From positions 52,537 through 116,536 of the forward strand of contig JAJYNW010000005.1 of the NCBI GenBank assembly GCA_021786105.1: 64,000 nucleotides of DNA, written 5' to 3'. Below, piece by piece: positions 15,194 to 43,994 of the stretch; positions within the stretch are counted from its first letter, which is position 1, and each line of letters starts with the position of its first letter. The notes beneath the pieces were generated by a model. The model was given only the letters and a program-made list of their open reading frames with translations. It ran no database searches and was not told the DNA's origin. A program made the position numbers and the translations under genes. The stretch comes from a bacterium (GTDB lineage: Bacteria; Patescibacteriota; Microgenomatia; Daviesbacterales; UBA10151).

Positions 15194-16705
15194 ATGAAAC
15201 TCAGATTTAAAAATTATATCCCAATTATTCTTATTATCCTCCTGGCAATATTTTTGCGGTTTGTAAACATCAATTCTAATCCTCCTTCTATGTATGGAGA
15301 TGAACTTACCTTAGTCTATGATGCTTATTCAATCCTAAAGACAGGACATGACCAAACCGGAGCTTTTCTGCCCTTAACATTTGCCATGAGTGAAGGTAGG
15401 CCACCTGCTTATGTCTACCTAACTGTACCATTGGTGGCGGCATTTGGTCCTACGGCGTTTGCTGCAAGATTTTTCTCTCTGGTCTCGGGCGTAGGAATTG
15501 TTCTTTTACTCTATCTTATACTTAAATCGTTAGTTTCTGAACGGGTTGCAACAATTGGAGCTCTATTTGCGGCAATTTCTCCTTGGGATTTATCACTTTC
15601 CCGGGGTGGATTCGAAACCCATCTGGCTCTGTTCTTGTCGCTTTTGGGAGTATATGCAGCTGTTCGTGCCAAGGTCCGTCCTTGGTATTTATTGATTTCT
15701 GGGATCTCATTTGGTTTGGCAATCTTCACATATCACTCATATAAAGTTGTGGTTCCGGCGTTTTTACCATTCTTGTTGTGGTTTATTGATTTAAAACAAC
15801 TAATTAAAGATAAAAAATTTCGAAAGAGTTTCATTATCGGGGCGACTGCATTTTTGTTTTTTGTTTCATTCTGGTTATATCAGGTAATTGGAGGATCGGA
15901 AATCCGTTTTCAAAATACCAGTCTCTTAAGCAATGCTAAACTCTCATCTACTATAACCGAAAAGGTTAATACCGAGAGAACTTTAGATAACTCACCTTTT
16001 AAAGTTATCATTCACAATAGACCAGTGGAGTATTTAACAACTTTAGGGGATAACTATTTTTCTCATTTTTCTTTTGATTTTCTTTTTTTGCATGGAGACG
16101 GAAATCCTCGGCATAACCAGGGGTTAATGGGGGAAATGTATATTGCTGATTCATTGTTGGTATTGCTGGGAATAATTTTTCTTTGGCAAAAATACAAGAA
16201 AGTTGCGCTCCTTTTGGGAGGTTGGATGATAGTTTCGCCCTTAGCTACGATGGTAGTTTCTCCAGCTCATGCTTTAAGAAGCACATTCCTTCTACCACCG
16301 CTTTTAATCTTATCTGCAACAGGTTTTACATATCTTCTGGAATTATCGCGTGATAAATGGGTAGCAAAATTAGTGTTTTTTGCAGTGGTACTTGGCATAA
16401 TAACCCAATTCATTTTTCTTGTAGATAGAGTTTATTACTTATACCCCAAGCAGTTTGGAAATTTTTGGAGTCTGTCTGCAAAAACCGCATCCGAAGATGC
16501 ATTGGCTGAAAGCAAAAAATATGATTATGTCGTTTTATCTGACCAAATTGATAGCATCAATTTAGCTTTTCCTGTTTATGTAAAAGTTGACCCAAATCAA
16601 GTTATTTCCCAGTATAATCAAAACGTTAGAAATTTTGGTAATATTTATATTGGCAAGGTATCCAATTTGCCGGGTAATGTTTTATACATAAAAAATAATC
16701 AATGA
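15194..16705 (+). CDS. GT-C-fold membrane glycosyltransferase, ArnT/PMT_2-like
   Basis: YGDELTLVYDAYS loop (DE motif) and multi-TM core. Paralogous to the 32270/33919/35423 triplet. Confidence 0.7.
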   Translation: MKLRFKNYIPIILIILLAIFLRFVNINSNPPSMYGDELTLVYDAYSILKTGHDQTGAFLPLTFAMSEGRPPAYVYLTVPLVAAFGPTAFAARFFSLVSGVGIVLLLYLILKSLVSERVATIGALFAAISPWDLSLSRGGFETHLALFLSLLGVYAAVRAKVRPWYLLISGISFGLAIFTYHSYKVVVPAFLPFLLWFIDLKQLIKDKKFRKSFIIGATAFLFFVSFWLYQVIGGSEIRFQNTSLLSNAKLSSTITEKVNTERTLDNSPFKVIIHNRPVEYLTTLGDNYFSHFSFDFLFLHGDGNPRHNQGLMGEMYIADSLLVLLGIIFLWQKYKKVALLLGGWMIVSPLATMVVSPAHALRSTFLLPPLLILSATGFTYLLELSRDKWVAKLVFFAVVLGIITQFIFLVDRVYYLYPKQFGNFWSLSAKTASEDALAESKKYDYVVLSDQIDSINLAFPVYVKVDPNQVISQYNQNVRNFGNIYIGKVSNLPGNVLYIKNNQ

Positions 16706-29472: not shown

Positions 29473-29500
29473 TTTAGCCTCAAATGGTGTATGATTCCTC

Positions 29501-29524
29501 GATTGCTTTCCTAAGGTAGCAATC
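29501..29524. promoter_or_regulatory. inverted repeat GATTGCT-N10-AGCAATC in the divergent intergenic region between the YfhO gene (-) and a GT2 gene (+)
   Basis: Perfect 7-bp arms with a 10-nt spacer, located 36 nt upstream of ATG 29560 and about 29 nt upstream of the minus-strand start. Confidence 0.35.
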
Positions 29525-29559
29525 TTTGCTAAACTTAAGAAAGAGGCCAGAACTAACTT

Positions 29560-30363
29560 ATGATTTCCGTTATTGTTATTACGAAGAACGAAGAAGAAAG
29601 AATTAAGGCGTGCCTGGAGTCCGTAAAATGGGCTGATGAAATTATCATTGCTGACACAGGCTCAACCGATAACACTCTTGAAATTGCCCGAGGGTATACA
29701 AAAAATATTTTTGCTTGTAAGGGAAACAATTTTATGGTTTGGAGAAACGAAGCTATAGAGAAGGCTTCAGGAGATTGGATCCTTTATTTAGACAGTGACG
29801 AGAGGGTTTTAGAGTCTTTACGAAAAGAAATAGAAGAGGTAACCAAATCAGCAGAAAATTCAGCTTATGCCATTTCCCGGAGGAATATAATTTTTGGCCA
29901 GGAAGAAAAATATGGACCTTTTTGGCCGGATTGGGTTGTCAGGCTCTTTAAAAAATCTGATTTTGAGACTTGGGTAGGGGAAGTACATGAATATCCAAAG
30001 TTTAAGGGAAGGTTAGGCTACACAAAGAATTCGTTTTTGCATTTGACCCATCGGGACATAGACCATGTGGTTCTTAAGAGTTTATCGTGGTCTAAAATTG
30101 ATGCCAAGTTGAGGTTGGAAGCAGGCCATCCCCAAATTTCTGGGTGGAGACTTCTAAGAATTTTAACAACAGAACTTTTTAACCAGGGCATAAAAAGAAA
30201 AGGTTTTTTTTCGGGAACTGTGGGGGTAATTGATTCCCTGATGCAGACGTTTAGCATGGTGATTACCTATATCAGACTTTGGGAATTGCAACAGCCAAAG
30301 ACACGCAGAGAAGTTTATCAGGATTTGGACAAAAAATTAATTGAGAGTAATTTTAACTTCTGA
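29560..30363 (+). CDS. GT2 glycosyltransferase (WaaE/KdtX-like subgroup)
   Basis: ISVIVITKNEEERI, SVKWADEIIIADTGSTDNT and LDSDE motifs; paralog of 25304 and 37071. Confidence 0.7.
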   Translation: MISVIVITKNEEERIKACLESVKWADEIIIADTGSTDNTLEIARGYTKNIFACKGNNFMVWRNEAIEKASGDWILYLDSDERVLESLRKEIEEVTKSAENSAYAISRRNIIFGQEEKYGPFWPDWVVRLFKKSDFETWVGEVHEYPKFKGRLGYTKNSFLHLTHRDIDHVVLKSLSWSKIDAKLRLEAGHPQISGWRLLRILTTELFNQGIKRKGFFSGTVGVIDSLMQTFSMVITYIRLWELQQPKTRREVYQDLDKKLIESNFNF

Positions 30364-31439
30364 TGAAAATTGGTATTTATACTCCGTATTTGGATAGTTT
30401 TGGTGGAGGCGAAAGGTATATGCTCACTATTGCTGAGGCTTTATTATTAGACCATGAGGTGGATATTTTTTTGGATAATCACTTATCTTCCAAAGAACCC
30501 GATAAATTAATTTCTGATTTGGCTGCCCGTTTTAATTTAAATCTTTCAAAAACCAATCTGATTAAAGCACCATTGGGATTAGGTGGAAAATTTTTTAAAA
30601 AGAACTCGTTTCTTAAAAAATATGACTTAATTTTTTATTTAACTGATGGGAGCGTTTTTTACTCAACTGCCAAAAAAAGCATAATTCACTTTCAGGTTCC
30701 TTTTAAAAATACTGCAGCCAAAAATCCCTGGGGAAGGATTAAACTCTCAACATGGAATTTAGCTATCTGCAACTCCTGTTTTACCCAAGAGGTTATTAAA
30801 AAAGAATGGCCTATTAAAACAGAAGTTGTTTACCCGCCCGTAGAGGTTGAGGCGGTTAAGCCTCTAAAAAAGAAAAAACAAATACTTACTGTAGGACGTT
30901 TCACCAGTTTCACTAAATCTAAAAAACAGGAGGAAATGATAAATGCTTTTGTGGATTTATATAAAACCGGAAAGATAGACGGATGGAGTTTTCATTTAGC
31001 GGGATCTGTGGAGGGGGATGAAAAATATATACAGGAATTAAAGGAACAAGCGAAAGGATTCCCTGTGTCATTTTATCCAAACCTTCCATTTAAAAATTTG
31101 GTGAAACTTTATGGGGAATCAAGTATATATTGGCATGCAGCCGGGTTTGGGGAAGATGATCCGGCAAAGATGGAGCACTTCGGAATTACCACAGTTGAAG
31201 CAATGGCAGGAGGGTGTGTGCCGATTGTCATTAATAAAGGCGGCCAACCGGAGATAGTAGAAAACGGTAAGTCAGGGTTGTTGTGGAACAGTTTAGAAGA
31301 ATTGCAGGCACTAACGCTGCAAATTATTAAAGATCAAAAACTGATGGAAGAGATTGGGGATCATGCGATTTCCCGGAGCAAGTTTTTCTCAAAAGGGAAA
31401 TTTGAGGAAAAGATCAAATTTCTTGTAAAAACTATATGA
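30363..31439 (+). CDS. GT4 (GT-B fold) glycosyltransferase
   Basis: C-terminal EHFGITTVEAMAGGCVPIV ... GKSGLL motif typical of GT4/Glycos_transf_1. Confidence 0.75.
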   Translation: MKIGIYTPYLDSFGGGERYMLTIAEALLLDHEVDIFLDNHLSSKEPDKLISDLAARFNLNLSKTNLIKAPLGLGGKFFKKNSFLKKYDLIFYLTDGSVFYSTAKKSIIHFQVPFKNTAAKNPWGRIKLSTWNLAICNSCFTQEVIKKEWPIKTEVVYPPVEVEAVKPLKKKKQILTVGRFTSFTKSKKQEEMINAFVDLYKTGKIDGWSFHLAGSVEGDEKYIQELKEQAKGFPVSFYPNLPFKNLVKLYGESSIYWHAAGFGEDDPAKMEHFGITTVEAMAGGCVPIVINKGGQPEIVENGKSGLLWNSLEELQALTLQIIKDQKLMEEIGDHAISRSKFFSKGKFEEKIKFLVKTI

Positions 31440-32254
31440 ATAAAATAAGCGTTATCACGGTTACCTACAACAGTGAGAGAACCATTAAAGAATGTCTTGA
31501 ATCCATAAAGAAATTTTCACCTGAATCGGAAATTATTGTGGTGGACAATGGTTCTAATGATAGAACCTTAGAAATTATTGAGAGTATTGGTAAAAAAATA
31601 AAATTAATTGAAACAGGGGAAAATCTAGGATTTTCTAAAGCAAATAATTTAGGGGCAAAAGATGCAATAGGGGACTACTTAGTTTTCTTAAACCCTGATG
31701 CAATATTAACCAAAAATGGTGATTTGGAATCTTTAAAGAAGATACTGGAGAAAAACCCCCAGTATGCCATTTTAGGGCCGAAACTCATTTATCCGGATAA
31801 TGCCCTTCAACCCAAAGCAAGGAATTTACCGACCGTGTTTCGGGCTTTTGAAGAATATGTATTAGGATTAAGGGGAGCATATAGTTTTTATGAACCTAAG
31901 TGTCAGAATTTTTGTGAGGTGGAAAGTGTAAACGGTGCCTGTATGATTATCAGAAAAGAACTATTTAATAGTATTGGAGGTTTTGATGAAAAATATTTTA
32001 TGTATTACGAGGAACTTGATTTATGCAGGAAGCTGCGTAAATTGGGAAAGAAAATCGGGTTTGCGCCTGAGGCGGTAGTGATCCATGCAGAAGGTATATC
32101 GTCTGGCCAAAACGAGAAAACTGCAGCGATAATGAAAGACTCAGCAAAGAAATATTTCGGCCTTTTGAATTATTTCTTACTACAACCGATCTTTTTCTAT
32201 AACCGAATTCTCAATAGAATCAGAAAAACCATTGGGCTTAGGGTTTATGCCTAA
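31436..32254 (+). CDS. GT2 glycosyltransferase, WbbL/RfbF-like
   Basis: ISVITVTYNSE, VVDNGSNDRT, NLGFSKANN and YYEELDLCRKLRKLG motifs. Confidence 0.75.
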   Translation: MNKISVITVTYNSERTIKECLESIKKFSPESEIIVVDNGSNDRTLEIIESIGKKIKLIETGENLGFSKANNLGAKDAIGDYLVFLNPDAILTKNGDLESLKKILEKNPQYAILGPKLIYPDNALQPKARNLPTVFRAFEEYVLGLRGAYSFYEPKCQNFCEVESVNGACMIIRKELFNSIGGFDEKYFMYYEELDLCRKLRKLGKKIGFAPEAVVIHAEGISSGQNEKTAAIMKDSAKKYFGLLNYFLLQPIFFYNRILNRIRKTIGLRVYA

Positions 32255-32269
32255 AGTATAATTGCCATT

Positions 32270-33922
32270 ATGAGTAAAAAGACCCTTTTTCTTTTAATTT
32301 TAATCACCGCTTTAGCCTTTTTCTTAAGGTTCTATAAAGTGACAGAAGTTCCTCCTTCTTTAAACTGGGATGAAGTTTCCATTGGCTACAACGCTTATTC
32401 TGTATTAAAGACCGGTAGGGATGAATGGGGAGTTCTATTACCGGTTCACTTTGAAGCGTTCGGTGAATTTAAGCTTCCTGTACAAATTTATGCCTCTATT
32501 CCTGCAATCGCCATTTTTGGTCTAAATGATTTTGGAGTCAGAATTACACCTGTTGTTTACGGAACATTAACAGTGCTTCTGCTTTTCTTTCTGGCAAGGA
32601 AAATTTTCAAAAGTGATTTTATTGGATTAGCATCCGCATTCCTTTTGGCATTTTCACCCTGGCATATTCAGCTGACTAGAGCCTCATTTGAATCATCATT
32701 TTCAGTCTTTTGGGTACTTTTAGGAATGCTGCTTTTTATTAAGGGATTTGAAAAGAAGAAATACTTTGCCTGGTCAATGGTCCCCTTTGCTATTTCTGTA
32801 TATACCTACAATAGTGCCCGTGTCTTTACACCCATGTTCTTAGTTGCCTTACTTTATATATACCGCAATTACTTTTGGAAGTTTCGCAAAGCTCTAGCAA
32901 TTTCTGCGGCCGTCTTTGCTGTTTGTATGTTGCCTTTGATGCCATCACTTCTAGGCAGTGAAAGAAATGCCCGATTTAAACTGGTGAGCGTTACAGATGA
33001 CCCGGGTTTGTTGCCAAGAATTAACCAAAACCGGGGTAACTCAACTCTACCGCAACCGCTGCCCAGATTGGTCAACAATAAAATCACCTATGTTTCTTTT
33101 TATGTGGTTGAACATTATCTAGCTCACTTTACTCCGCAATTCCTCTTTATAAGTGGCGCTCCCCATAAACAACACCATGTGCAGGGTATGGGGGAGCTTT
33201 ATTATTTCCAGGCGCCGTTTCTTTTGTTAGGGTTGTACTTTTTGTTTAAAAAGAAACAACAATACAGATGGCTTTTAAGCTCCTGGGTACTTTTGGCTTT
33301 TATTCCGGTTTCTATTACCAATGACAGTATCCCACATGCATTAAGGACATTAATTGCGGCTCCTTTTTATCAATTGGTTACGGCTTTTGGTGCTTATGAA
33401 GTATATTTGTGGTTGAAGCAAAAACATGTGAGTTGGCGGATACTAATCGGCACAATTTTGGCTCTGGTTATGATGTTTGAGTTGGGACGTTACCTGAACA
33501 ATTACTACAATATATATCCTAATCTCTATTCCCGGGATTGGCAGTACGGATATGAACAGGTTGTTAACTATATAAGAGATCATCAGAATGAATATGACGA
33601 AATTGTTTTTAGCAGGACATATGGGGAGCCGCACATTTTTACTCTGTTCTATTTAAATTATGATCCTTACGAGTACCAACATGATCCCAATTTGGTGCGC
33701 TATGAGACTAACGATTGGGTTTGGGTTTTAAGGTTTGGAAAATTCTATTTCCCTGATTTAGGAGACAAGGGAACTCATTTTACTGACATTGTTGCTCAAA
33801 ATCCGGGTAAAAAAATATTATTTATCGGAAAACCCGGCGACTTTCCCCCTAACATACCGCCGCTCAAACAAATTAAGTTCTTGAATGGTGACTTGGATTT
33901 TGAAATAGTGGAGGTAAGATGA
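32270..33922 (+). CDS. GT-C-fold membrane glycosyltransferase, ArnT/PMT_2-like (tandem paralog 1 of 3)
   Basis: FFLRFYKVTEVPPSLNWDEVSIGYNAYS (DE loop) and a multi-TM core with C-terminal soluble domain. Confidence 0.7.
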   Translation: MSKKTLFLLILITALAFFLRFYKVTEVPPSLNWDEVSIGYNAYSVLKTGRDEWGVLLPVHFEAFGEFKLPVQIYASIPAIAIFGLNDFGVRITPVVYGTLTVLLLFFLARKIFKSDFIGLASAFLLAFSPWHIQLTRASFESSFSVFWVLLGMLLFIKGFEKKKYFAWSMVPFAISVYTYNSARVFTPMFLVALLYIYRNYFWKFRKALAISAAVFAVCMLPLMPSLLGSERNARFKLVSVTDDPGLLPRINQNRGNSTLPQPLPRLVNNKITYVSFYVVEHYLAHFTPQFLFISGAPHKQHHVQGMGELYYFQAPFLLLGLYFLFKKKQQYRWLLSSWVLLAFIPVSITNDSIPHALRTLIAAPFYQLVTAFGAYEVYLWLKQKHVSWRILIGTILALVMMFELGRYLNNYYNIYPNLYSRDWQYGYEQVVNYIRDHQNEYDEIVFSRTYGEPHIFTLFYLNYDPYEYQHDPNLVRYETNDWVWVLRFGKFYFPDLGDKGTHFTDIVAQNPGKKILFIGKPGDFPPNIPPLKQIKFLNGDLDFEIVEVR

Positions 33923-35466
33923 GGAAACCCTGGCTAATATTGCTGGCTATTTTATGTCTCTTTTTGGCTACTAGGTTTTATAAGCTTGGTGAGGTTCCGG
34001 TTTCAGCTTATTGGGACGAGGCATCTATTGGATATAATGCTTATTCGATTTTACAGACCGGTAAAGATGAATGGGGAAATTCGTTTCCGCTGCACTTTAA
34101 GGCTTTCGGAGAATATAAACTTCCTTTTTATATATATGCTACTGTTTTACCAGTAAAATTATTTGGCTTAAATGAATTTAGTGTTAGGCTGCCATCGGTA
34201 ATTTTTGCACTATTTAATGTATTACTTATGTACTTCATTGCAAAAAAGATTTCCGGGAAACAGTCTGTAGGGTTATTAAGCGCTTTCTTTTTGTCTATCT
34301 CACCGTATTTCTTTATTTTTTCCAGGACGGGATATGAAGCAGTTCCGGGAATGACCTTTTTCCTTTTGGGGGTCCTCTTCTTCCTTAAATCCCAGCAAAG
34401 ACCTTGGTGGTTTCTATTGACCGGATTGGTTATGGCTGTAAGTATGTATGTCTATAATGGGTATCGGATTATCTCTCCGCTTGTTTTATTAATTTTTACT
34501 GTTCAACTTTTTGTTCTTCATAAGAAAAATTTAGTTAAGAATTTTACCCCTATTGTATTAGCTGGGGTCATTTTCCTAATAGGCTGTTATCCTCTAATTA
34601 ATTTCTTAAGAAGCGATGGTTCTGTTAGTCGTTTTCAGGCTATTGGTATTGAAGGTTTGGATAGAAAGAAAATTTTCGTTGGCCTCGATATTGCCAAAAA
34701 CTATCTTACTCACTTTAATCCGGTGTATTTATTTGTGGACGGAGATAAAAACCTACGTTCTCAAATAGCGGGTTTTGGAGAACTTTATGTTTTTGATGCT
34801 GGATTATTAGTGTTTGGTTTAATTTTTTTAAGGAAAAATCCGAAATTGAGTAGGTGGCCGCTAGCGCTACTTTTAATTGGATTTTTACCGGCAGCTGTGA
34901 CCCGAGAAGTCCCCCATGCATTAAGGTCTCTAGCTGCTGCGCCGTTTCTCAGTATGGTTTCCGCATTGGGTGTAGTTTATCTGCAAGACAAACTGGCTAT
35001 AGAGAAAGGGAAAGTGGTTCTAGCTGTTGTAGGAATATATCTGGCATTTTTCTTGGTTTACTTCAATAATTTTCTTACTGTTTATCCAGCTCAGAGTTCC
35101 GCTTCCTGGCAACAAGATTATAAATTAATTTACCAAGATTATTCCAAGGAATTTAGTAACTATGACCATATCTTAATTTCTGACAGATACGATCAGCCGT
35201 ATATTTTTTCGCTCTTTTACCAAAAATACGATCCAAATAAATTCCGGTCCGAGGTTGTATATAACACTGATAATCGAAGGGCAACTTCTTTAGTAAAGAG
35301 TTTTGACAAATATATTTTTGATGATATTGATTTTAATCAGCTACCACCTGGAAAGACTCTAATCTTTTCTCATCCCACTGACAGGTTAAATGAACTTTGG
35401 GTAAAAAATATTTTGTATCACAGTGACGGAACTGTTGCCTTTTATGTTTACGAATATCAAAAGTGA
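33919..35466 (+). CDS. GT-C-fold membrane glycosyltransferase, ArnT/PMT_2-like (tandem paralog 2 of 3)
   Basis: About 50% identical N-terminal region to 32270 (RFYKLGEVPVSAYWDEASIGYNAYS). ATGA overlap with the upstream gene. Confidence 0.7.
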   Translation: MRKPWLILLAILCLFLATRFYKLGEVPVSAYWDEASIGYNAYSILQTGKDEWGNSFPLHFKAFGEYKLPFYIYATVLPVKLFGLNEFSVRLPSVIFALFNVLLMYFIAKKISGKQSVGLLSAFFLSISPYFFIFSRTGYEAVPGMTFFLLGVLFFLKSQQRPWWFLLTGLVMAVSMYVYNGYRIISPLVLLIFTVQLFVLHKKNLVKNFTPIVLAGVIFLIGCYPLINFLRSDGSVSRFQAIGIEGLDRKKIFVGLDIAKNYLTHFNPVYLFVDGDKNLRSQIAGFGELYVFDAGLLVFGLIFLRKNPKLSRWPLALLLIGFLPAAVTREVPHALRSLAAAPFLSMVSALGVVYLQDKLAIEKGKVVLAVVGIYLAFFLVYFNNFLTVYPAQSSASWQQDYKLIYQDYSKEFSNYDHILISDRYDQPYIFSLFYQKYDPNKFRSEVVYNTDNRRATSLVKSFDKYIFDDIDFNQLPPGKTLIFSHPTDRLNELWVKNILYHSDGTVAFYVYEYQK

Positions 35467-37066
35467 GAAAAGATTAATTTTTGTTGTCCTGCTACTAATT
35501 CTTGGATTGGCTTCTGTTCTGCGTTTTTATAAATTAGACCAGGTCCCCCCGGCAATTTATTGGGACGAGGCAGCTAATGGTTATAACGCTTATACCATTG
35601 CCAATTGGGGCCGAGATGAATGGGGGAAATTTTTACCCACCTCTTTTAAGTCATTTGGAGATGATAAGAATCCGGTGCACATATATCTCACAGTAATTCC
35701 GGTAAGGATCTTAGGTCTAAACGAATTTAGCACCCGTTTACCGGCAGCCTTAATGGGGATCTTAGGTGTATTAATGGTTTATCTGTTGGGAGAAGCGATC
35801 TTTAACAACAAGAAAATTGGGCTTATTTCAGCGTTAGTTTTTGCTGTTTCCCCTTATACCTTACAATTTTCCCGTTTTAACCATGAAGCGATTTTTACAA
35901 TTTTCTTTTTCATGCTGGGGTTATGGTTGTTTTTAAAAGGTGTAAAAGTTAAGCCTAAACTTATTCCTTTATCATTTTTTGTTTTTGGAGTTTCTATTTT
36001 AACCTACCACTCAGCAAAGATTGTAGTGCCACCCGTTATACTACTGCTTATTGTTTTGTATTTTAAAGACCTTTGGAAGCAAAAAGGGTTATTTTTGGGA
36101 GGACTAATTATTCTGGGGATAGTTATGAGCGTATTTATTTTTAACCCCGCACTTTTAGGGATGGCCCGGGCTAGCCAAACTTCAGTACCGGTAGAATCAA
36201 TCCAGAAGATGAGTCTTTATAAAAAAACAGGGAATGAACTTTTAGGAAGGGTAGAGCTGAGTTGGCAAAGGTACTTAACTTACTTTGGCTATGATTTTCT
36301 CTTCGTTTCCGGAGATAAAATTGCCCGTCATTCTTCCCAGGGAGCGGGAGAATTTTACAGAATAGATTTAATATTTTTAGTTATTGGACTTTTATCCTTA
36401 ATCCGTTATCGAAGGAAAGAAAGTCTAATTCTTTTGTCTTGGGCGGTTTTGGCACCCATCCCCGGAAGCATCGCTGGAGGAATTACCGAAACAGCGCACG
36501 CAGGCAGGTCGCTTTTTATAATGGGTAGTTGGCATCTACTGGCTGGACTGGGTTACTATAGTTTCTTAAAAATTTTCCGGAAAACTTGGGTCATTGTAAT
36601 TGTCGGGGTGATACTTTTGGGTATTTTAGGGTGGCAGATGAAAGATTATCTGAATTATTACTATGGTGAATATGTCACCAGATATGCTATTGAGTGGCAA
36701 TATGGAATGAAACAAATTTCCCAGTATCTTCAGGAACATGATGGATATTCCCAGGTTTATATTACTGATGCCAGGGTAGAGCCATATATCTTCCTTCTTT
36801 ACTATATGCAGGTACCGTTACCAAGATTTTTGGATACGGTTTACTACAACGATACACAGAGCCGTCCATCTAATTTAGTGACTTTTTTTGATAAGTATCA
36901 TTTTGGAGACTGGGACCCAATTGAGAGTTTCCCAAATCCCGGTGTCCTTTATGTCCTGACTCCCAGCCAATATGATGGATTACGATATAAACAACAATTT
37001 AAAGTGAAAAAACTGATAAAATATCCTAATGGGCTGGATGCCTTTTATCTGGTAGCCCTTTATTAA
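35423..37066 (+). CDS. GT-C-fold membrane glycosyltransferase, ArnT/PMT_2-like (tandem paralog 3 of 3)
   Basis: RFYKLDQVPPAIYWDEAANGYNAYT. Start may be the internal MFTNIK at 35444; overlaps the upstream gene either way. Confidence 0.7.
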   Translation: MTELLPFMFTNIKSEKRLIFVVLLLILGLASVLRFYKLDQVPPAIYWDEAANGYNAYTIANWGRDEWGKFLPTSFKSFGDDKNPVHIYLTVIPVRILGLNEFSTRLPAALMGILGVLMVYLLGEAIFNNKKIGLISALVFAVSPYTLQFSRFNHEAIFTIFFFMLGLWLFLKGVKVKPKLIPLSFFVFGVSILTYHSAKIVVPPVILLLIVLYFKDLWKQKGLFLGGLIILGIVMSVFIFNPALLGMARASQTSVPVESIQKMSLYKKTGNELLGRVELSWQRYLTYFGYDFLFVSGDKIARHSSQGAGEFYRIDLIFLVIGLLSLIRYRRKESLILLSWAVLAPIPGSIAGGITETAHAGRSLFIMGSWHLLAGLGYYSFLKIFRKTWVIVIVGVILLGILGWQMKDYLNYYYGEYVTRYAIEWQYGMKQISQYLQEHDGYSQVYITDARVEPYIFLLYYMQVPLPRFLDTVYYNDTQSRPSNLVTFFDKYHFGDWDPIESFPNPGVLYVLTPSQYDGLRYKQQFKVKKLIKYPNGLDAFYLVALY

Positions 37067-37070
37067 AAAG

Positions 37071-37931
37071 ATGAAAATATCGGTAGCGTTAGCTGCATAC
37101 AATGAAGAGGAGAATATTGGCGAGTGCTTAAAATCTATCCAGGATTTAGCGGATGAGATAGTTGTGGTGGTTGGTAAGTCTCCGGATAAGACGGCTGAAA
37201 TAGCTAGAGGCTTTGGTGCAAAGGTTGTGGAAATTGAGAATGACCCAACAATGTTTCACAGGATGAAACAAAAAGCTTTTGATTTAGCTCAGGGCGAATG
37301 GGTTCTCTATTTAGATGCGGATGAGAGGGTTTCTTTAAAACTTGCTGAGGAAATTAAAAAAATAACCTCAATGAGTGATGAGGAAATTGAAAAATATCAA
37401 AAAAGTCTCAAGGACAGAAACCTATTTTTGCGCCACCAAAAGTTATTGGAGGGCAGGGATGGCAAAATCGGCGATGAGAATAAAGAATACGTTGCTTTTT
37501 TCTTTCCGCGTTTAAACTTTTTCCTGGGTAAATACTTACGTTTTGGAGGTGTATATCCGGATGGTGTGATTAGGCTATTTAAGAAGGGTAAGGCCCATCT
37601 TCCCTGTAAGGATGTCCATGAACAGATGACGGTTGAAGGCAAAGTGGGCTGGCTGCAAAATGATTTATTGCATATGGCGGATCCAACATTTTCCAGATAT
37701 TTAAACAGAAACAGCCGTTATATAAGTTTAATTGCCGGCCAGTTAAAAGACCAAAAAGTTGGCAAAAACTTCCTTCAATTTTTTAATTATTTTATTTTTA
37801 AGCCCATACACTGGTTTATTCTGACACAGGTAAGGCATAAAGGTATTCTGGATGGTTTCCAGGGGATAGTTTTTTCTTTCTTTTCTGCTTTGAGGTTCCC
37901 GCGGGCTTACTGGAGGTACTTAACTCAATGA
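37071..37931 (+). CDS. GT2 glycosyltransferase (WaaE/KdtX-like subgroup)
   Basis: ISVALAAYNEEENI, DLADEIVVVVGKSPDKT and LDADER motifs; third paralog of this GT2 subgroup. Confidence 0.7.
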   Translation: MKISVALAAYNEEENIGECLKSIQDLADEIVVVVGKSPDKTAEIARGFGAKVVEIENDPTMFHRMKQKAFDLAQGEWVLYLDADERVSLKLAEEIKKITSMSDEEIEKYQKSLKDRNLFLRHQKLLEGRDGKIGDENKEYVAFFFPRLNFFLGKYLRFGGVYPDGVIRLFKKGKAHLPCKDVHEQMTVEGKVGWLQNDLLHMADPTFSRYLNRNSRYISLIAGQLKDQKVGKNFLQFFNYFIFKPIHWFILTQVRHKGILDGFQGIVFSFFSALRFPRAYWRYLTQ

Positions 37932-38977
37932 TTAAGGTTGCTTTAGATACTTCTCCGCTTGTTTCTGGTCATAAAAGCCGGGGAATCGGCTTTTACACCA
38001 AAAATTTACTGGCTGCTATGGAGAAAAACTCAACTATCCAGGTTCGGGAATTTGAAAAAATTGATCAGCTTGAAGATGCCGATATTATCCACTATCCCTA
38101 TTTTGATCTTTTTCAACAAACACTCCCCTTTAGGAAAAAACTCCCTACAGTTGTTACCATCCATGATGTTATTCCCTTGGAGTTTCCCCAACATTATCCT
38201 TCCGGTGTTCGGGGATCAATGAATAATTTTCTTCAAAAAATATCTTTAAAAAATGTTGCGGCAGTACTTACCGATTCCAAATTTTCACAGCAAGAAATCA
38301 TTAAGTACTTGGGTGTGCCAAAGGAAAAAGTCTTTCCGGTTTATCTGGCACCAGCGGCCCATTTTCATCAGATCAAAGATCAAAATGTTCTGAAAAATAC
38401 CCAACAAGAGTTCCAGTTACCGGAGAAGTTTGCTTTATTTAGCGGCGGTGCTAACTATAATAAAAATTTGCTTAATCTTACAGAGGCAACTTTAAAAGCA
38501 GGCTTGGATTTAGTAGTGGTGGGCAAGAGTTTTGAAACCCGGGAAAACCTTAACCATCCGGAACTTTCGACTTTTGCTGAATTTTTAAAAAAATACGTCG
38601 ACAATCCATTGGTCCATATGTTGGGTTTTGTGGAAGATGCGGATTTGGTAGCAATAATGAATCTGGCAACAGTTCTGCTTTTACCTTCCTTTGCTGAAGG
38701 ATTCGGGCTGACTATCTTGGAAGCTCAAATTTGCGGCACGCCGGTGATTACCAGTAATATCTCTTCAATGCCGGAGGTGGCGGGAGAAGGAGCTATTCTA
38801 GTTGATCCATATTCAGTGGCGAATATATCCAAAGCCATTGAAGAGATAGTAACAGATAAGACAGTGGCAGAAGATTTGAGGAAAAAGGGGTTTGAAAATG
38901 TCAGTAAGTTTTCCTGGGAGAAGACTACTGAGGAGACCATTCAGGTTTATGAAAAAGTTATTTCCTCAAGAATTTAA
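37928..38977 (+). CDS. GT4 (GT-B fold) glycosyltransferase
   Basis: SFAEGFGLTILEAQICGTPVITSNISSMPEVAG motif. Confidence 0.75.
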   Translation: MIKVALDTSPLVSGHKSRGIGFYTKNLLAAMEKNSTIQVREFEKIDQLEDADIIHYPYFDLFQQTLPFRKKLPTVVTIHDVIPLEFPQHYPSGVRGSMNNFLQKISLKNVAAVLTDSKFSQQEIIKYLGVPKEKVFPVYLAPAAHFHQIKDQNVLKNTQQEFQLPEKFALFSGGANYNKNLLNLTEATLKAGLDLVVVGKSFETRENLNHPELSTFAEFLKKYVDNPLVHMLGFVEDADLVAIMNLATVLLLPSFAEGFGLTILEAQICGTPVITSNISSMPEVAGEGAILVDPYSVANISKAIEEIVTDKTVAEDLRKKGFENVSKFSWEKTTEETIQVYEKVISSRI

Positions 38978-40103
38978 GAGAATCCTTTCTTTGTTTATTA
39001 TTTGGCGGGTATCTTTATTTGTAGTTGCCTTTTTGGCTACTACACTGATCCCCAATTTTGGCGCCCGCTTCCCGTATTATAATAATTTACTGATTCCCAC
39101 CGGGCTACCTTCCTGGATCTGGGGTTTTGGGAATTTTGATGGTGTGCACTTTTTAAGGATTGCCATGCTTGGTTACGAAGGATCAAATCTTTCTCAGGCT
39201 TTTTTCCCGCTGTACCCTCTGCTAATAAAAATATTTGCCTTCGGTAACCAATGGTTTTTGTCAGGTTTCATAGTTGCAAATATTTTTTCCCTATTTAGCT
39301 TATTTGTATTTTATAAACTGGTGAAACTGGACTTTAACGAGAAAGTTGCTTGGAGATCAGTGCTATTGCTTATCGTATTTCCAACCTCATTTTATTTAGG
39401 GTCAATTTATTCAGAATCCTTATTTATTTTCTTGACTATTTCGAGCATTTACCTTTTGAGAAGGAAAAATTATTTAGGAGCAGGTCTTTTGGGAGGAATG
39501 GCTGCCGCTACCCGGCTTGTGGGGTTAATATTGGTACCTCTTTTTCTGGCAGAGATCTATCAAAGAAGAGGTGAGTTAAAAGATATAAGCAAAAAAGAAA
39601 TTGCTAAGTATGTGGCAAGTATAGGGCTTGTTGGCGCAGGCTTTTTGTCTTATGTATATTTTTTACAGATTCGTTTTGCCAATCCGTTGTATTTTCTTTC
39701 TGCCCCTTCTCAATTTGGGACAGGAAGAGAGAATATGCCTTTGGTTCTACTCCCCCAAGTCTTATTTAGATACTTTAAAATGTTAGTTTCTACGCCGGTT
39801 ATCTCCTTACCTTTTTTAAACGCCGCCCTAGAGGTCTTATTTACAGTCATTCCTCTGGCACTTCTGGTGCTTTTCTTTAAAAGGATGAGGTTGAGCTACT
39901 GGTTTTTTACCTTAACTTGTTTGGTAATTCCCACTCTGACCGGAACCTTTACTTCAATGCCCCGATATGCACTTGTAAGTTTCCTGCTACTTCCTTTAGT
40001 CGCCCAAAAAACAGAGCGGTATTTTTATCTTTTAATCCTGTCACTTGTACTCTTGGGGGCAATTTTGTTAGGGTTATTTATTAGGGGGTATTGGGTGGCA
40101 TAA
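38949..40103 (+). CDS. polytopic GT-C-fold glycosyltransferase, PIG-V (mannosyltransferase)-like
   Basis: Start refined from 38892 to ATG 38949 (MKKLFPQ). Motif FDGVHFLRIAMLGYEGSNLSQAFFPLYPLL matches the PIG-V family signature; about 9 TM helices. Confidence 0.5.
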   Translation: MKKLFPQEFKRILSLFIIWRVSLFVVAFLATTLIPNFGARFPYYNNLLIPTGLPSWIWGFGNFDGVHFLRIAMLGYEGSNLSQAFFPLYPLLIKIFAFGNQWFLSGFIVANIFSLFSLFVFYKLVKLDFNEKVAWRSVLLLIVFPTSFYLGSIYSESLFIFLTISSIYLLRRKNYLGAGLLGGMAAATRLVGLILVPLFLAEIYQRRGELKDISKKEIAKYVASIGLVGAGFLSYVYFLQIRFANPLYFLSAPSQFGTGRENMPLVLLPQVLFRYFKMLVSTPVISLPFLNAALEVLFTVIPLALLVLFFKRMRLSYWFFTLTCLVIPTLTGTFTSMPRYALVSFLLLPLVAQKTERYFYLLILSLVLLGAILLGLFIRGYWVA

Positions 40104-40105
40104 AA

Positions 40106-41347
40106 ATGATTCATAAAGTAAAACGCATTGTAAAGAATCCGTTATTTTCCGGCAGCCTGGTTATGATTGTTGGCTCCAACGTTGGCAATGTCATTAATTA
40201 TGTTTACCACTTGATTATGGGAAGAATGTTGGGTCCGTCCGCCTATGGTGAACTGGCAGTGCTGCTTTCCCTATTTGGAATTTTAGGGGTAGCTGCCACT
40301 GCGTTAAACCTGGTAGTAGTTAAATATATTTCGGCTGCAGAAGATGAAAAAGAAATTGCCGGATTGGTAAAGTGGTTTGAAAGCAATACCTTCAGATTAT
40401 CCCTAATTATTTTTGTTTTGATCGCCTTTATCTCTCCACTCGCTGCAAAGTTTCTAAATGTCAGCAGTTTTATCACAATTATCCTCATTGCTTTAGCTGT
40501 TGTCATTTCTTTTATAACTACAGTTGTGCGGTCTGCATTGCAGGGGTTATTAATGTTTACTCAAAATGTAGCCTCGTTCCTGATTGAACATATTTTAAAA
40601 CTAACAATTGGAGTGATACTTGTCGTATTGGGTTTTTCGGTAGGAGGAGCAGTTTTTGCTTTAGTGATAGCAACACTTTTGAGCTTAATCGTTAGTCGGA
40701 AATTTCTTTCTCTTAAACCCTTAAATAGCACAGTTCCATTACCTGTAAAATCAGTCTTGTATTATTCGATGCCTGTTTTATTTCAGTCAATTGCCATTAC
40801 CTCGCTATATTCAACCGATCTTATTTTAGTAAAACATTTTTTTAATTCGCAGGATGCAGGCATTTATGCAGCCGTTTCTACTCTGGGAAAAATAATTTTC
40901 TTTACTGCCGGCCCAATTAGTTCAGTAATGTTTCCTATTGTTTCTAGAAGACATGCAAGAGGTGAAGATTACCAGAAACCTCTTTATTATAGTCTAGTGG
41001 CAACCGCTTTATCAGCTATTGTAGTTTTACTACTTTTTCAGTTTATACCCCAGCAGACATTGACTGTTCTCTATGGAACATCTTATCTTTCTGGTGCGGG
41101 TTTGCTTATATACTTTGGAATCTTTGCAACACTCTTTACATTGTCATCACTACTTATAAATTTCCACCTTTCGCTCAAAAGATCGTGGGTAGTGGTTTTC
41201 CCGATTTTAGCAGCAATAGCGCAGATTATTGGTATCTGGAGTTTCCACTTTAGTCTTTTATCTGTTATTATGGTTTCCATAGTAGTAAGCAGTGGGCTTT
41301 TTGTAAGCCTGTTTGCTTATACAGTTTTCAAATACTATCTGCGCTAA
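40106..41347 (+). CDS. Wzx/PST-family (MOP superfamily) flippase
   Basis: Track start 40091 overlaps the upstream gene; ATG 40106 follows the upstream stop. GRMLGPSAYGEL motif near TM1 and about 12-14 TM helices. Confidence 0.7.
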   Translation: MIHKVKRIVKNPLFSGSLVMIVGSNVGNVINYVYHLIMGRMLGPSAYGELAVLLSLFGILGVAATALNLVVVKYISAAEDEKEIAGLVKWFESNTFRLSLIIFVLIAFISPLAAKFLNVSSFITIILIALAVVISFITTVVRSALQGLLMFTQNVASFLIEHILKLTIGVILVVLGFSVGGAVFALVIATLLSLIVSRKFLSLKPLNSTVPLPVKSVLYYSMPVLFQSIAITSLYSTDLILVKHFFNSQDAGIYAAVSTLGKIIFFTAGPISSVMFPIVSRRHARGEDYQKPLYYSLVATALSAIVVLLLFQFIPQQTLTVLYGTSYLSGAGLLIYFGIFATLFTLSSLLINFHLSLKRSWVVVFPILAAIAQIIGIWSFHFSLLSVIMVSIVVSSGLFVSLFAYTVFKYYLR

Positions 41348-41348
41348 T

Positions 41349-42143
41349 ATGGCTAAGAAGCAATTAATATCGATCATTGTTCCCGCATACCGACAAGGTA
41401 GCACTATAAAGAAAGATTTGGAAAACATAGACCATGTACTTTCGGAAAGCTTACAGGATTTTGATTATGAGATCATTTGTGTTGTAGATGGGATGATCGA
41501 CAAAACTTACGAAGAAGCGCAAAAAGTAAAATTGCCCAGAGTTAAAGTGGTAGGTTATGAGCAGAATAAGGGAAAAGGGTATGCAGTCCGTTTTGGGATG
41601 GCCAGATCAAAAGGAGACCTTATTTCTTTTTTGGATGCAGGAATGGAGATCAGCCCGGCTTCGGTCATGATGTTGATGGCCCATATGAAATGGTATAACG
41701 CTGATATTATCGTTGGTTCCAAGCGCCACCCCGTTTCCCGGGTAAATTATCCACTGTTACGCCATATTTTTAGTATCGGATATCACCTTGGGGTAAAGAT
41801 CCTTTTTGGGTTACCTCTAAGTGATACTCAAAGCGGAATCAAAATATTTAAAAGAAAGGTAATGGAAGTAGTATTGCCTCGGCTATTAGTTAAAAAATAT
41901 GCTATGGATATTGAAATGCTGGCAGTGGCGCGGTGCTTAGGGTTTAAACGCATTTACGAGGCTCCGATTGAGGTGACCTTTGATAAAAAAACGAGTGCAA
42001 TCTCCTGGAAAGTTATTTTAAGGATGGTCATGGATACATTAGCAATTTTTTACCGGCTAAAGGTTCTTGGGTATTACAATGATGGGAATGAAAGAAAATG
42101 GCGTTTTGACCCCGATTTGCATTTCAGAGTAAATGTAGGCTAA
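41349..42143 (+). CDS. GT2 polyprenyl-phosphate sugar synthase (DPM1/GtrB-like)
   Basis: Start refined to ATG 41349 (MAKKQLISIIVPAY). Motifs IICVVDGMIDKT, FLDAGMEI and SDTQSG. Confidence 0.75.
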   Translation: MAKKQLISIIVPAYRQGSTIKKDLENIDHVLSESLQDFDYEIICVVDGMIDKTYEEAQKVKLPRVKVVGYEQNKGKGYAVRFGMARSKGDLISFLDAGMEISPASVMMLMAHMKWYNADIIVGSKRHPVSRVNYPLLRHIFSIGYHLGVKILFGLPLSDTQSGIKIFKRKVMEVVLPRLLVKKYAMDIEMLAVARCLGFKRIYEAPIEVTFDKKTSAISWKVILRMVMDTLAIFYRLKVLGYYNDGNERKWRFDPDLHFRVNVG

Positions 42144-42156
42144 AATACCCTCTAGT

Positions 42157-43182
42157 ATGTTGGCTGAAGCAAAATTAGAAGCCATTCATTTTGGAGTTCG
42201 ATTGGCTGCCGAACAGGTTTTAGGTCATTTAAAACCCGTTAAACTTGATTACAGAGAAGATGCTAATTTAGAAAACGCCTGGGAGGCGAGCCGTAATCAA
42301 GGAAATCACACTGAATCAGCGAGTAGATATTATTCTGTTTACACTACCTCAACAGATACTTTGATCCGGTCTCAAGCTCTAATCGGCCTTACTCGTGGGT
42401 TAATAGATTTGGGTTCATTTGGACAAGCACGACAATTTTTATCTCAGGCTTCAGCGCTATGCAATGATTTTTCAGTTGAGACGAGACGCCGGTTATTTAT
42501 AGCTCATATTGAAGGCCAAAAAGGATGGATAGCAGATTATGAACTTGGTTATCATGCTGAGATTAAACATTTCGGTAACGCTTTGAATGGTTTAAATGTG
42601 GTGCAAAGGTTGGAATGGGGTATACCTGAAGAGGAGCTAAATTCAACTGCTTATCATTGTATTGGCCGTGCAAGAGTGGGATTGGCTGATGCAGGAGTGG
42701 ATAGGGAAGAGAATATTAGGCTTGCTATGGAAGATATCACAATGGCAAGAAGATTGGATGAAAAGTTGCCGATGCCCACTATCAATGAAAAAGTTGGACA
42801 TGGTTTTGCGTGGGAAGCGAGATGTTGTTTGAGGTTGGGAGAGTTTGCCAGAGCTGATGAACTGACCGAGAAAGCAGAACTTAATTTTAGAAAGCACCAT
42901 TCTCTTTTTCCAGATTCTCCAATAATGGCACACTACTACTTGCTTTTAGGAGAACGTGATTTTAAACATGGGTTTACTTTAGAGGCGAGAAGAGATTTTG
43001 AAGAGGCTGCGAGAATTAGAACAGGCAAAAGTGCGATTTACCCAAAAGGTGTATCCGATGCTTATAAGGGTATAGCAGCTACGTACTGGAAGGAAGGAGA
43101 TATAAAGAACGCGGCAAGATTCCTTATTAAGGCAGCAAAAATTAATCCCCAATCGGTAGCTAGAGGAATGTTGGGTGGTTAG
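42157..43182 (+). CDS. soluble TPR-like helical-repeat protein, unknown function
   Basis: No TM helix or signal peptide. Repeated A/Y/G/L-spaced helical pairs (AYKGIAATYWKEGDIKNAARFLIKAAKINP and similar); Arg/Ala-rich, unlike the neighbouring membrane proteins. Confidence 0.4.
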   Translation: MLAEAKLEAIHFGVRLAAEQVLGHLKPVKLDYREDANLENAWEASRNQGNHTESASRYYSVYTTSTDTLIRSQALIGLTRGLIDLGSFGQARQFLSQASALCNDFSVETRRRLFIAHIEGQKGWIADYELGYHAEIKHFGNALNGLNVVQRLEWGIPEEELNSTAYHCIGRARVGLADAGVDREENIRLAMEDITMARRLDEKLPMPTINEKVGHGFAWEARCCLRLGEFARADELTEKAELNFRKHHSLFPDSPIMAHYYLLLGERDFKHGFTLEARRDFEEAARIRTGKSAIYPKGVSDAYKGIAATYWKEGDIKNAARFLIKAAKINPQSVARGMLGG

Positions 43183-43186
43183 ATAG

Positions 43187-43192: not shown

Positions 43193-43198
43193 AACTTT

Positions 43199-43993
43199 GT
43201 GATTAAATCTATTTTTGTTAGTTCCAAGCACCTTCAGGGAATCGAAAATAGCGGAGCCAACCATTTAGTGGTTAACGGTAGTGATTTAGATAATGAGGGT
43301 TGGGAAAAACTTCAAGGATTAGATACAAGGCTTATTATTTCCGTAAATGCCATAGAAAAAGGCGAAGAAGCTTGTATTTTGGATCCTCAAATTCAAAAAA
43401 GATTACTCGATCGTTTAGATAAAGCCTTGCAATTTCAACCGGAAGGAATTTTGATAGACCGTTTGCGTTTTGGAGGAGATTGTACGGATATTAGGGATGA
43501 AGATATTTCAAAAGCTCACCAAGTATGTCAATTCTGCCAGGGAAAAGATCGCGTAGACACTTTAACGGAATTTGGGAAGCAGCTGAGTAAATATGTAAAT
43601 GGTAGAAGTAAGTTGGGTATTTTTGCCGTTGCTTTTAAGGATGATGAAGCGCCAAAGTTGGGTCAGGTTTTAGGGGTTAATTATTCGAAACTTGGAAAAG
43701 TTTTTGACTTATTTTCTCCGATGTTATATCACCAGATGCTACAAAAACCGGTAACCTATATCTCCGATTATACAAAATGGATAAGTGAGAAAACGGGAAA
43801 ACCAATTTTACCAATCATTCAAATTAAAAACATGCCGGATGATTTAGAGGATAATATTACCGAAGAAGAAATTGCCGCTGCTTTTAATGAGGCTATTAAG
43901 TACCCTTCGGAAGGAATATGCTTTTTCTGGTGGGCTCATGCCTTGGAGAAAAATAAAACAAGCATTATTGGGAAGCTATTTTGCAGCCATTAA
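43199..43993 (+). CDS. soluble protein, possible TIM-barrel glycoside-hydrolase-like fold (unknown)
   Basis: GTG start (first start after an in-frame TAG) and no internal ATG for ~170 codons. No TM helices. Function not recognisable. Confidence 0.3.
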   Translation: MIKSIFVSSKHLQGIENSGANHLVVNGSDLDNEGWEKLQGLDTRLIISVNAIEKGEEACILDPQIQKRLLDRLDKALQFQPEGILIDRLRFGGDCTDIRDEDISKAHQVCQFCQGKDRVDTLTEFGKQLSKYVNGRSKLGIFAVAFKDDEAPKLGQVLGVNYSKLGKVFDLFSPMLYHQMLQKPVTYISDYTKWISEKTGKPILPIIQIKNMPDDLEDNITEEEIAAAFNEAIKYPSEGICFFWWAHALEKNKTSIIGKLFCSH

Positions 43994-43994
43994 T

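Follow-up and report, generated by a model that had tools for sequence, protein, structure and literature searches.

A conserved trio of GT-C-fold membrane glycosyltransferases within a dense glycosylation island of Daviesbacteria

Introduction

In monoderm bacteria, the decoration of teichoic acids and wall polysaccharides is carried out by a GT-A enzyme together with a GtrA- or Wzx-type flippase and a GT-C enzyme of the PMT_2 type (PMC8035078). Multi-component systems of this sort include GtlA/GtcA/GtlB, CsbB/GtcA/YfhO and GacI-J/GacK/GacL, where GacK is the Wzx protein (PMC8035078). The mycobacterial embC-embA-embB operon encodes three homologous GT-C arabinosyltransferases (CAZy family GT53), which are 40-46% identical; the Emb enzymes use a common donor and perform the same reaction on different acceptors (PMC7341804). 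With regard to the catalytic residues of GT-C enzymes, a DE pair located after the first transmembrane helix (TM1) is known to be the active-site motif, namely D55/E56 in ArnT and D77/E78 in Pmt1, and K85 of ArnT binds the carrier phosphate (PMC7801869).

The DNA discussed here is a stretch of 64 kb from a Candidatus Daviesbacteria genome (Microgenomates, CPR; an ultrasmall bacterium of the groundwater type), referred to as the window, and three GT-C genes lie in tandem within it. The surfaces of CPR/Patescibacteria are almost unstudied, and the cells are thought to be attached to a host. Within the limited literature covered, no published account of GT-C arrays in CPR, Microgenomates or Daviesbacteria was found. 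The trio is genuine and conserved, yet ordinary for its bacterial group, being neither engineered nor unique, and it adds new members to the GT-C enzymes of known type.

The three tandem paralogs

The three consecutive genes, all on the plus strand, encode GT-C-fold membrane glycosyltransferases and are termed A (32270..33922, 550 aa), B (33919..35466, 515 aa) and C (35444..37066, 540 aa). They had been reported in a preliminary description of this DNA; the open reading frames are indeed intact at these positions, and the RFYK...WDE strings quoted there occur in all three proteins. A is the most conserved among them. The start codon of B is preceded by GGAGG, 8 nt 5' of the ATG. C may begin at the ATG at 35444 or, as a 547-aa form, at the GTG at 35423, and it is the 540-aa form which is recorded in the public collection. 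The translational coupling by ATGA overlaps that had been suggested for the series is present at the A/B junction (33919-33922), where the same overlap also occurs in seven other genomes, while the other junctions differ: B and C overlap by 23 nt (or 44 nt from the GTG), and C is separated from the GT2 gene that follows by a gap of 4 nt.

Through BLASTP, the pairwise identity among the three proteins was observed to be 34-35% over 458-525 residues (E 1e-73 to 3e-90). In residues 1-130 it rises to 45-51%, so the earlier figure of about 50% for the N-terminal part is correct. The similarity is highest at the end of TM1 and in the first outside loop (51-61%), and the remaining regions share only 22-31%. 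As had been proposed, each protein carries a C-terminal soluble domain; however, these are mutually homologous and not three different domains, with W424, Q425, P454, F457, L459, F489, F494 and L517 being common to all of them.

Fold and catalytic motifs

All three proteins lie above the Pfam gathering scores for PMT_2 and PMT. PMT (PF02366) gives 39.8, 33.3 and 28.1 bits, where the gathering score is 22.7; this model is broad and is equalled or exceeded by PMT_2. As expected of the GT-C(A) fold, the membrane domain has around 11-13 helices, the first outside loop is long and contains juxtamembrane helices, and the proteins match structures that have been solved for GT-C(A) enzymes. The best TM-score was obtained with ArnT (0.54/0.55), at a sequence identity of 12-13%. 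A sequence search of the PDB also matched ArnT (5EZM) as the sole structure, with an E-value of 2e-6 and covering residues 61-234 only. The NCBIfam models do not name the family, as there are only sub-threshold matches, to Agl23, ArnT, STT3 and LA_3751. The ArnT equivalog NF009784 (cut-off 567) matches C alone, at 20.6 bits; archaeo_STT3 gives about 20 bits against a cut-off of 450.

In all three ortholog clades, 38 residues are shared by at least 90% of the members, and 15 of these 38 fall in the first outside loop of 64 residues. They include W33-D34-E35, D51-E52 and K68-x-P70. The W33-D34-E35 motif is retained by 90% or more of the proteins in each clade, and its equivalence to the DE pair of ArnT and Pmt1 is one of position after TM1, not of residue-level superposition. 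Further, K68, which is universal in A, B and C, aligns in HMMER with the lysine of the ArnT "EKPP" stretch. Near this lysine, there are also loop positions which are fixed in a clade-specific manner in A, B and C, respectively: position 64 (Y/F/F), position 66 (E/E/D) and position 72 (Q/Y/H). Fold, conserved catalytic motifs, orthology and synteny of the trio are matters of observation.

Age of the duplications

A, B and C belong to separate ortholog clades with one member per genome, and each clade is represented in 9-11 genomes of Daviesbacteria/Microgenomates. The mean identity within the clades is 65% for A, 49% for B and 52% for C, as against 31-32% between them; the orthologs of B are 41-66% identical and those of C 47-55%. 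In a neighbour-joining tree, the clades of B and C are sisters, and all three clades are older than the Daviesbacteria radiation. The duplications are therefore old, as had been stated earlier, since separate clades are found in a conserved gene order across 9-11 related genomes.

The opposite reading, in which the trio is a recent amplification or a redundant array in partial decay, has nothing in its favour beyond the tandem arrangement, and the results already refute it, leaving it practically no chance. The protein identity is just 34%, and the only DNA similarity found by the repeat scan consists of short patches of 63-79% where the loop motif is conserved, which shows that no recent repeat is present. 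In a collection of about 15 billion proteins, no relative that is at least 90% identical exists for any of the three, and each is a singleton cluster at 90% identity. The closest orthologs are 66-75% identical at the protein level, which means that synonymous sites are saturated. Near-identical copies in other strains and decaying copies, the two findings that would have spoken against functional divergence, were both looked for and neither was found: the genes are full length with intact frames, their lengths agree with those of the orthologs, and the catalytic residues are kept in every clade. Recent duplication and pseudogenes are, in this way, excluded by BLAST, repeat scan, tree and cluster look-up. 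The description of the series as "engineered-looking" is likewise unwarranted, as related genomes commonly have 2-8 such paralogs in tandem and the subfamily is large (5,830 clusters at 50% identity, E <= 1e-30), with no characterised member among these thousands of clusters.

The conserved block and the wider window

The trio is part of a run of 13 genes on the plus strand, with gaps of -29 to +16 nt. The run begins with a soluble GT2 (29560..30363; Pfam Glycos_transf_2), followed by a GT4 (Glycos_transf_1; 30363..31439), which by Pfam and synteny is a cytoplasmic Leloir-type enzyme; this pair is conserved in the related loci L002, L004, L005, L006, L009 and L010. Next lies a GT2 that is rhamnosyltransferase/EpsD-like by Pfam and NCBIfam-type profile matches (31436..32254). 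Downstream of C, there is a GT2 (37071..37931) of which the N-terminal ~100 residues alone match known GT2s (GmaR, SunS and, weakly, DPMS), and this gene comes after C in each related locus that was found to have both B and C. Its conserved 3' partner is a GT4 (Glycos_transf_1; 37928..38977). Then come a PIG-V-like GT-C membrane protein (Mannosyl_trans2; 38949..40103), also conserved within the block, and a Wzx/MOP-type flippase (Polysacc_synt; 40106..41347) with a weak NCBIfam match to "O-glycosylation flippase". The next gene encodes a soluble GT2 of the DPMS/GtrB/ArnC-like type (41349..42143), whose orthologs are 58-78% identical. In the PDB it matches the Pyrococcus dolichol-P-mannose synthase 5MLZ (E 5e-13), GtrB 5EKP and ArnC; its NCBIfam matches to PpgS, PgfS and ArnC are all under the cut-off. 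A cytoplasmic TPR protein (42157..43182) and a soluble 264-aa protein without a family match (43199..43993; the L005 ortholog is 56% identical) complete the run. A promoter and terminator scan of 27000-45000 gave counts at chance level and is, therefore, uninformative.

Five loci, L002, L003, L005, L006 and L009, keep the order A-B-C-GT2-GT4-PIG-V-like-Wzx-DPMS-like GT2. The same order is followed to the locus ends in L004 and L007, but with insertions between A and B. Wherever a related locus has both B and C (nine loci), the two genes are neighbours, usually overlapping or 1-3 nt apart. Directly upstream of A, on the other hand, there is a slot with 0-5 extra GT-C genes, varying by genome.

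A fourth paralog had been noted at 15194. This further paralog, D (15194..16705, plus strand, 503 aa), does exist and is the nearest to the trio, at 27-29% identity to A, B and C (its L011 ortholog is 41% identical to it), but the count was too low, as the window holds 15-17 GT-C genes. Fifteen open reading frames score above the gathering thresholds of Pfam models of the GT-C type (PMT, PMT_2, PTPS_related, PIG-M, PIG-V and YfhO), and two are just below. The polytopic unannotated proteins at 23475 and 18570 (minus strand) were also considered as family members, and profile comparison was negative for both. The window additionally encodes a GtrA-type protein (82-684; profile match to GtrA_DPMS_TM) and a full-length ArnC/GtrB-like enzyme (58428, minus strand). 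Profile searches of the 64 kb revealed no initiating phosphoglycosyltransferase, ligase, LCP transferase or obvious acceptor protein; arnA/B/D-type genes were absent from the window, and genes for teichoic acids or rhamnan were likewise not seen there.

Proposed function

A, B and C are probably non-redundant, catalytically competent GT-C(A) enzymes with an active site outside the cell, which would transfer sugar from polyprenyl phosphate to a surface acceptor. What follows on the sugar donor, on the role of the flippase, on the acceptor and on a possible order of action is inferred. The lipid carrier would receive its sugar from the DPMS-like GT2 at 41349, and the Wzx-type flippase (40106) or the GtrA-like protein (82-684) would bring the loaded carrier across the membrane, where A, B, C and the PIG-V-like protein (38949) could use it. 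The cytoplasmic GT2 and GT4 enzymes would assemble the acceptor glycan, and the acceptor may be either a secreted protein or a glycopolymer of the wall or anchored in the membrane. Against this scheme stands the absence from the window of an initiating phosphoglycosyltransferase, a ligase, an LCP enzyme and an obvious acceptor protein. Alternatively, the substrate of the 40106 protein could be a diphosphate-linked oligosaccharide and not a monophosphate sugar.

It had been proposed earlier that the flanking GT2 and GT4 genes provide the donors, which is not borne out. GT4 enzymes are cytoplasmic, use nucleotide sugars and do not make the polyprenyl-phosphate-sugar donors of GT-C enzymes; the GT2 at 31436 is rhamnosyltransferase/EpsD-like, and that at 37071 has only generic N-terminal features. 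The GT2 at 41349 is most plausibly the best candidate for the donor synthase of the conserved block. As the donor-side loop is the best conserved part and the rest shares 22-31%, the three enzymes probably use the same donor class and differ in acceptor or position. Strong conservation of the first loop is, however, typical of GT-C(A) enzymes in general and hence is weak evidence for a common donor. The clade-specific positions 64, 66 and 72 could signify different sugars. The earlier idea of different specificities fits the divergence outside the catalytic loop.

Three other readings have to be weighed against independent successive enzymes. It has been considered whether B and C, perhaps with A, form an obligate hetero-oligomer similar to EmbA-EmbB or Pmt1-Pmt2. 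The sister relationship of B and C and their adjacency in 9/9 loci, whereas inserted genes part A from B in L004 and L007, are in line with such a complex, and there are precedents in the solved EmbA-EmbB heterodimer and EmbC dimer (PMC7341804) and in the Pmt1-Pmt2 complex (PDB 6P25/6P2R). Nevertheless, independent enzymes of one pathway are equally expected to be adjacent and co-inherited, and the complete catalytic residue set in all three means that none resembles a mere partner subunit; such an oligomer is considered unlikely. A somewhat doubtful suggestion is that A, B and C are protein O-glycosyltransferases of the PMT/TMTC type, each mannosylating, or adding some other sugar to, the Ser/Thr residues of its own set of secreted proteins, such as pilins or surface-layer proteins. 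CPR bacteria depend on pili and surface proteins, which counts for it, as do the PF02366 scores above the gathering score, the NCBI name of the orthologs ("glycosyltransferase family 39 protein") and the DE motif (PMC7801869); on the other side, no MIR domain match was found in A, B or C, including their C-terminal domains.

A further reading, in which one or more of the enzymes would act as an oligosaccharyltransferase or ligase and pass a pre-assembled, Wzx-flipped oligosaccharide as a whole from its polyprenyl-diphosphate carrier to the final acceptor, is highly improbable. The operon does combine cytoplasmic GT2/GT4 enzymes and a Wzx-type flippase without a recognisable ligase, polymerase or LCP enzyme, and the invariant W424-Q425 stands right after the last membrane helix, the site of WWDYG in oligosaccharyltransferases. 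However, the WWDYG motif itself is absent, with only W424-Q425 conserved there (DWQYG in A, SWQQD in B and EWQYG in C).

On the pattern of the ER-lumen ALG enzymes or of arabinan synthesis in mycobacteria, it may be tentatively suggested that A, B and C form with the PIG-V-like GT-C the invariant core of an outside assembly line for a lineage-wide Daviesbacteria glycan, while the variable slot upstream of A would give rise to strain-specific glycoforms. If so, variation of a serotype-like kind could be expected, which would matter for attachment to a host or evasion of phages, and an ultrasmall bacterium would be using a whole island of 64 kb, with 15-17 GT-C genes, to build glycan outside the cytoplasm (the contigs on which these genes occur reach 0.94 Mb at most). 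In any case, a Daviesbacteria genome maintains a stable trio of distinct, presumably lipid-carrier-dependent GT-C transferases within a very dense glycosylation island. The conserved core beside a variable slot is a concrete target, and by itself it reveals no new mechanism.

Comparison with known systems

ArnT (GT83) is similar to A, B and C in size, in having its membrane helices ahead of a C-terminal outside domain, in the DE motif and in the lysine equivalent to K85. It differs from them in sequence (12-13% identity), the scores lie far from the equivalog cut-off, and there are no arn genes nearby. CPR bacteria are not known to possess lipid A. RgtA and RgtB of Rhizobium are an ArnT-like pair. 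Both of them add galacturonic acid to the outer Kdo (PMC4402001). As compared with PMT (GT39) and TMTC enzymes, A, B and C have no MIR or TPR domain, and only about 330 residues superpose. They are also unlike the ER-lumen ALG3/9/12 and the STT3/PglB/AglB enzymes (GT66), as they lack WWDYG and any significant sequence similarity, and their carrier and acceptor would be bacterial.

Similar to the multi-component systems of monoderm bacteria, the window has candidates for all three roles (41349 and 58428 on the minus strand; 40106 and 82-684; and the PMT_2-type GT-Cs), and its GT-C enzymes carry an acidic motif in the outside loop. The characterised systems are one-to-one pairs, whereas here the genes for three paralogous GT-Cs and the PIG-V-like protein lie in one operon with a single DPMS-like GT2 gene. 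For the arrangement of the A-B-C genes themselves, the mycobacterial embC-embA-embB operon is the closest precedent.

Three tandem paralogs and their predicted active sites

As the preliminary description had proposed, three consecutive and diverged ArnT/PMT-like paralogs are present on the plus strand: A (32270-33922, 550 aa), B (33919-35466, 515 aa) and C (35423/35444-37066, 547 or 540 aa, depending on the start chosen). All three exceed the Pfam gathering scores of PMT_2 and PMT, and BLASTP aligns them pairwise with 34-35% identity across 458-525 residues (E 1e-73 to 3e-90). The N-terminal identity, put earlier at about 50%, is 45-51% over residues 1-130; it reaches 51-61% at the end of TM1 and the first outside loop, and is only 22-31% in the remainder. 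At the DNA level, similarity is confined to short patches of 63-79% located at the conserved loop motif. The next closest paralog, D (15194-16705), shares 27-29% identity with them. The motif strings quoted earlier are found in A, B and C. Of the ATGA overlaps described, the one at the A/B junction is present, while B and C overlap by 23 nt when C is taken to begin at ATG 35444, as it does in its public-collection record. With the ORFs, homology, motifs and overlaps thus checked, the observation stands after minor corrections.

The AlphaFold model of A (pLDDT 88.2, pTM 0.88) has a membrane domain of about 11-13 helices, two short helices in the long first outside loop and a C-terminal alpha/beta domain of 130 residues. 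Across the three clades, 38 residues are conserved, and 15 of them lie in the first loop, including W33-D34-E35, D51-E52 and K68-x-P70. In ArnT and Pmt1, the active-site motif is such a DE pair following TM1, and the carrier phosphate is contacted by K85 of ArnT (PMC7801869), to which K68 was aligned by HMMER. On the strength of the conserved loop residues, the DE motif and this alignment, all three proteins look catalytically competent.

Age and conserved order

In a neighbour-joining tree of 64 paralogs, A, B and C form three separate clades with one member per genome each, those of B and C being sisters. Members of a clade share on average 65% identity for A, 49% for B and 52% for C, compared with 31-32% across clades, and at a 90% identity threshold each window protein clusters alone in a collection of about 15 billion proteins. 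These results indicate that the duplications are older than the Daviesbacteria radiation and that all three copies have been maintained, in agreement with the earlier reading of old duplications. A recent or decaying amplification was sought as pseudogenisation of two copies or as near-identity in other strains; neither was found, and this explanation is refuted. Assemblies of Candidatus Daviesbacteria and other Microgenomates/Patescibacteria supply the close orthologs of A, which share 63-75% identity with it and nearly all have a length of about 550 aa; the exact window proteins were located on contigs, the longest of which measures 942,606 bases.

Gene-by-gene BLAST of ten related loci with an A ortholog found one gene order repeatedly: A, B, C, a GT2 of the 37071 type, a GT4 of the 37928 type, a PIG-V-like GT-C, a Wzx-type flippase and a DPMS-like GT2. 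B adjoins C in every locus with both genes, and inserted genes part A from B in two (L004 and L007). Between the upstream GT4 (ortholog of 30363) and A lie 0-5 additional GT-C genes, the number varying by genome; in the loci compared (L002, L004, L005, L006, L009, L010) they are often accompanied by a DPM1-like GT2, and in the window the slot between 30363 and 32270 holds none. This suggests a cassette-like turnover of accessory transferases beside a conserved A-B-C core. Other Patescibacteria loci carry up to eight such GT-C genes in a row (L014), and a profile of A-D matched 5,830 clusters at 50% identity (E <= 1e-30). In this group, tandem arrays of the subfamily are commonplace, and the series is not the "engineered-looking" one it had seemed.

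Two adjacent ORFs of the related locus L010 (5309-5989, 226 aa; 5989-6843, 284 aa) each match A, B and C, and the pair looks like a PMT_2 paralog that has been split and possibly pseudogenised. Several species-representative assemblies with tandem GT-C loci of the A-B-C type or a related one (L005, L006, L013, L015, L017-L020) are labelled 'uncultured Gammaproteobacteria', 'Pseudomonadales' or 'Candidatus Sulfotelmatobacter'. Clear Daviesbacteria-type A, B and C orthologs are present in L005 and L006, and these assemblies are probably mislabelled or contaminated bins.

A glycosylation island

The window as a whole (1-64000) constitutes a glycosylation island. Fifteen ORFs lie above the gathering scores of GT-C-type Pfam models (PMT, PMT_2, PTPS_related, PIG-M, PIG-V, YfhO): 938-2122 (minus strand), 2848, 5102, 6667, 8310, 15194, 16702, 20588, 27034 (YfhO, minus strand), A, B, C, 38892, 54992 and 61499. 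Two more, 22060 and 43995 (minus strand), fall just below, and the single fourth paralog counted earlier was thus a large underestimate. About a dozen GT2, four GT4, two Wzx-type flippases, one GtrA-type flippase, two methyltransferases and an epimerase are also present, along with an MBOAT acyltransferase (47208-48701) followed by an AlgX-like SGNH-domain protein (48703-49941), two genes that probably act together in glycan O-acetylation. The plus strand carries nearly all genes, and GC skew is positive throughout.

The GT-C tandem pair 6667-8322 and 8310-10034 (PTPS_related/PMT_2) is diverged, with 35% identity over 543 aa, and both genes are conserved in L011. Two GT2 genes (25253-27054, plus strand) converge with the YfhO-family GT-C (27034-29472, minus strand), an arrangement conserved in L009 and reminiscent of the CsbB/YfhO teichoic-acid glycosylation pair. 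For three large polytopic membrane proteins, Pfam gave no match: 11699-15163 (plus), 18570-20543 (minus) and 23475-25247 (plus). The first two are paralogs (31% identity over 658 aa), and the protein encoded at 11699 carries a signal peptide, with some 470 aa of outside domain preceding the membrane domain. Neither 23475 nor 18570 matched the A-D family in a profile comparison. Orthologs of these unmatched proteins adjoin GT-C arrays in six loci (L003, L004, L006, L011, L013, L014).

Proposed donor supply and mechanism

Between 29560 and 43993, thirteen genes follow one another closely, at gaps of -29 to +16 nt. The flanking GT2 and GT4 genes had been suggested as the donor source, which is only partly right because the GT4s are cytoplasmic, nucleotide-sugar-using enzymes unable to make donors for GT-C enzymes, the GT2 at 31436 resembles rhamnosyltransferase/EpsD and sequence comparison gave no specific assignment for the GT2 at 37071. 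The best candidate donor synthase is the GT2 at 41349, which matches the Pyrococcus dolichol-phosphate-mannose synthase (E 5e-13), GtrB and ArnC, and is conserved at the end of the syntenic block in relatives. Elsewhere, 58428 (minus strand) encodes a full-length ArnC/GtrB/PgfS-like GT2 that has membrane helices at its C terminus, and soluble relatives are found at 2151, 4381 and 57606 (the last on the minus strand).

Taking the multi-component transmembrane glycosylation systems of monoderm bacteria (PMC8035078) as a model, we lean towards a mechanism in which a polyprenyl-phosphate sugar would be synthesised in the cytoplasm and flipped. On the outer face it would serve A, B, C and the PIG-V-like enzyme as donor for decorating a surface glycopolymer or glycoprotein, the acceptor core of which the GT2 and GT4 enzymes would assemble in the cytoplasm. 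PMT-type protein O-glycosylation is a less probable alternative, and a B-C heteromer like EmbA-EmbB or Pmt1-Pmt2 is unlikely. En-bloc oligosaccharyl transfer is highly improbable: STT3 is the top fold match, and an invariant W-Q directly past the last membrane helix (WQYG in A, residues 424-427, window 33539-33550; WQQD in B; WQYG in C) occupies the position of WWDYG in STT3, PglB and AglB, but differs from that motif, which is itself absent from A, B and C.

A, B and C are new and uncharacterised, while the enzyme kind, the tandem GT-C arrangement and the system type are all already known; a limited literature search found no published description of GT-C arrays in CPR bacteria. Beyond what was first claimed, the most interesting aspect is how densely GT-C genes occur in so small a genome, and likewise the conserved A-B-C core against the variable neighbouring slot. 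Returning to the outer-face decoration mechanism, the donor-side loop is strongly conserved and the other regions are divergent, which suggests one shared class of donor with different acceptors or positions. Alternatively, three loop positions near K68, fixed differently clade by clade, could encode different sugars. A shared donor with differing acceptors or positions is also the arrangement of the emb operon (PMC7341804) and of RgtA/RgtB (PMC4402001).
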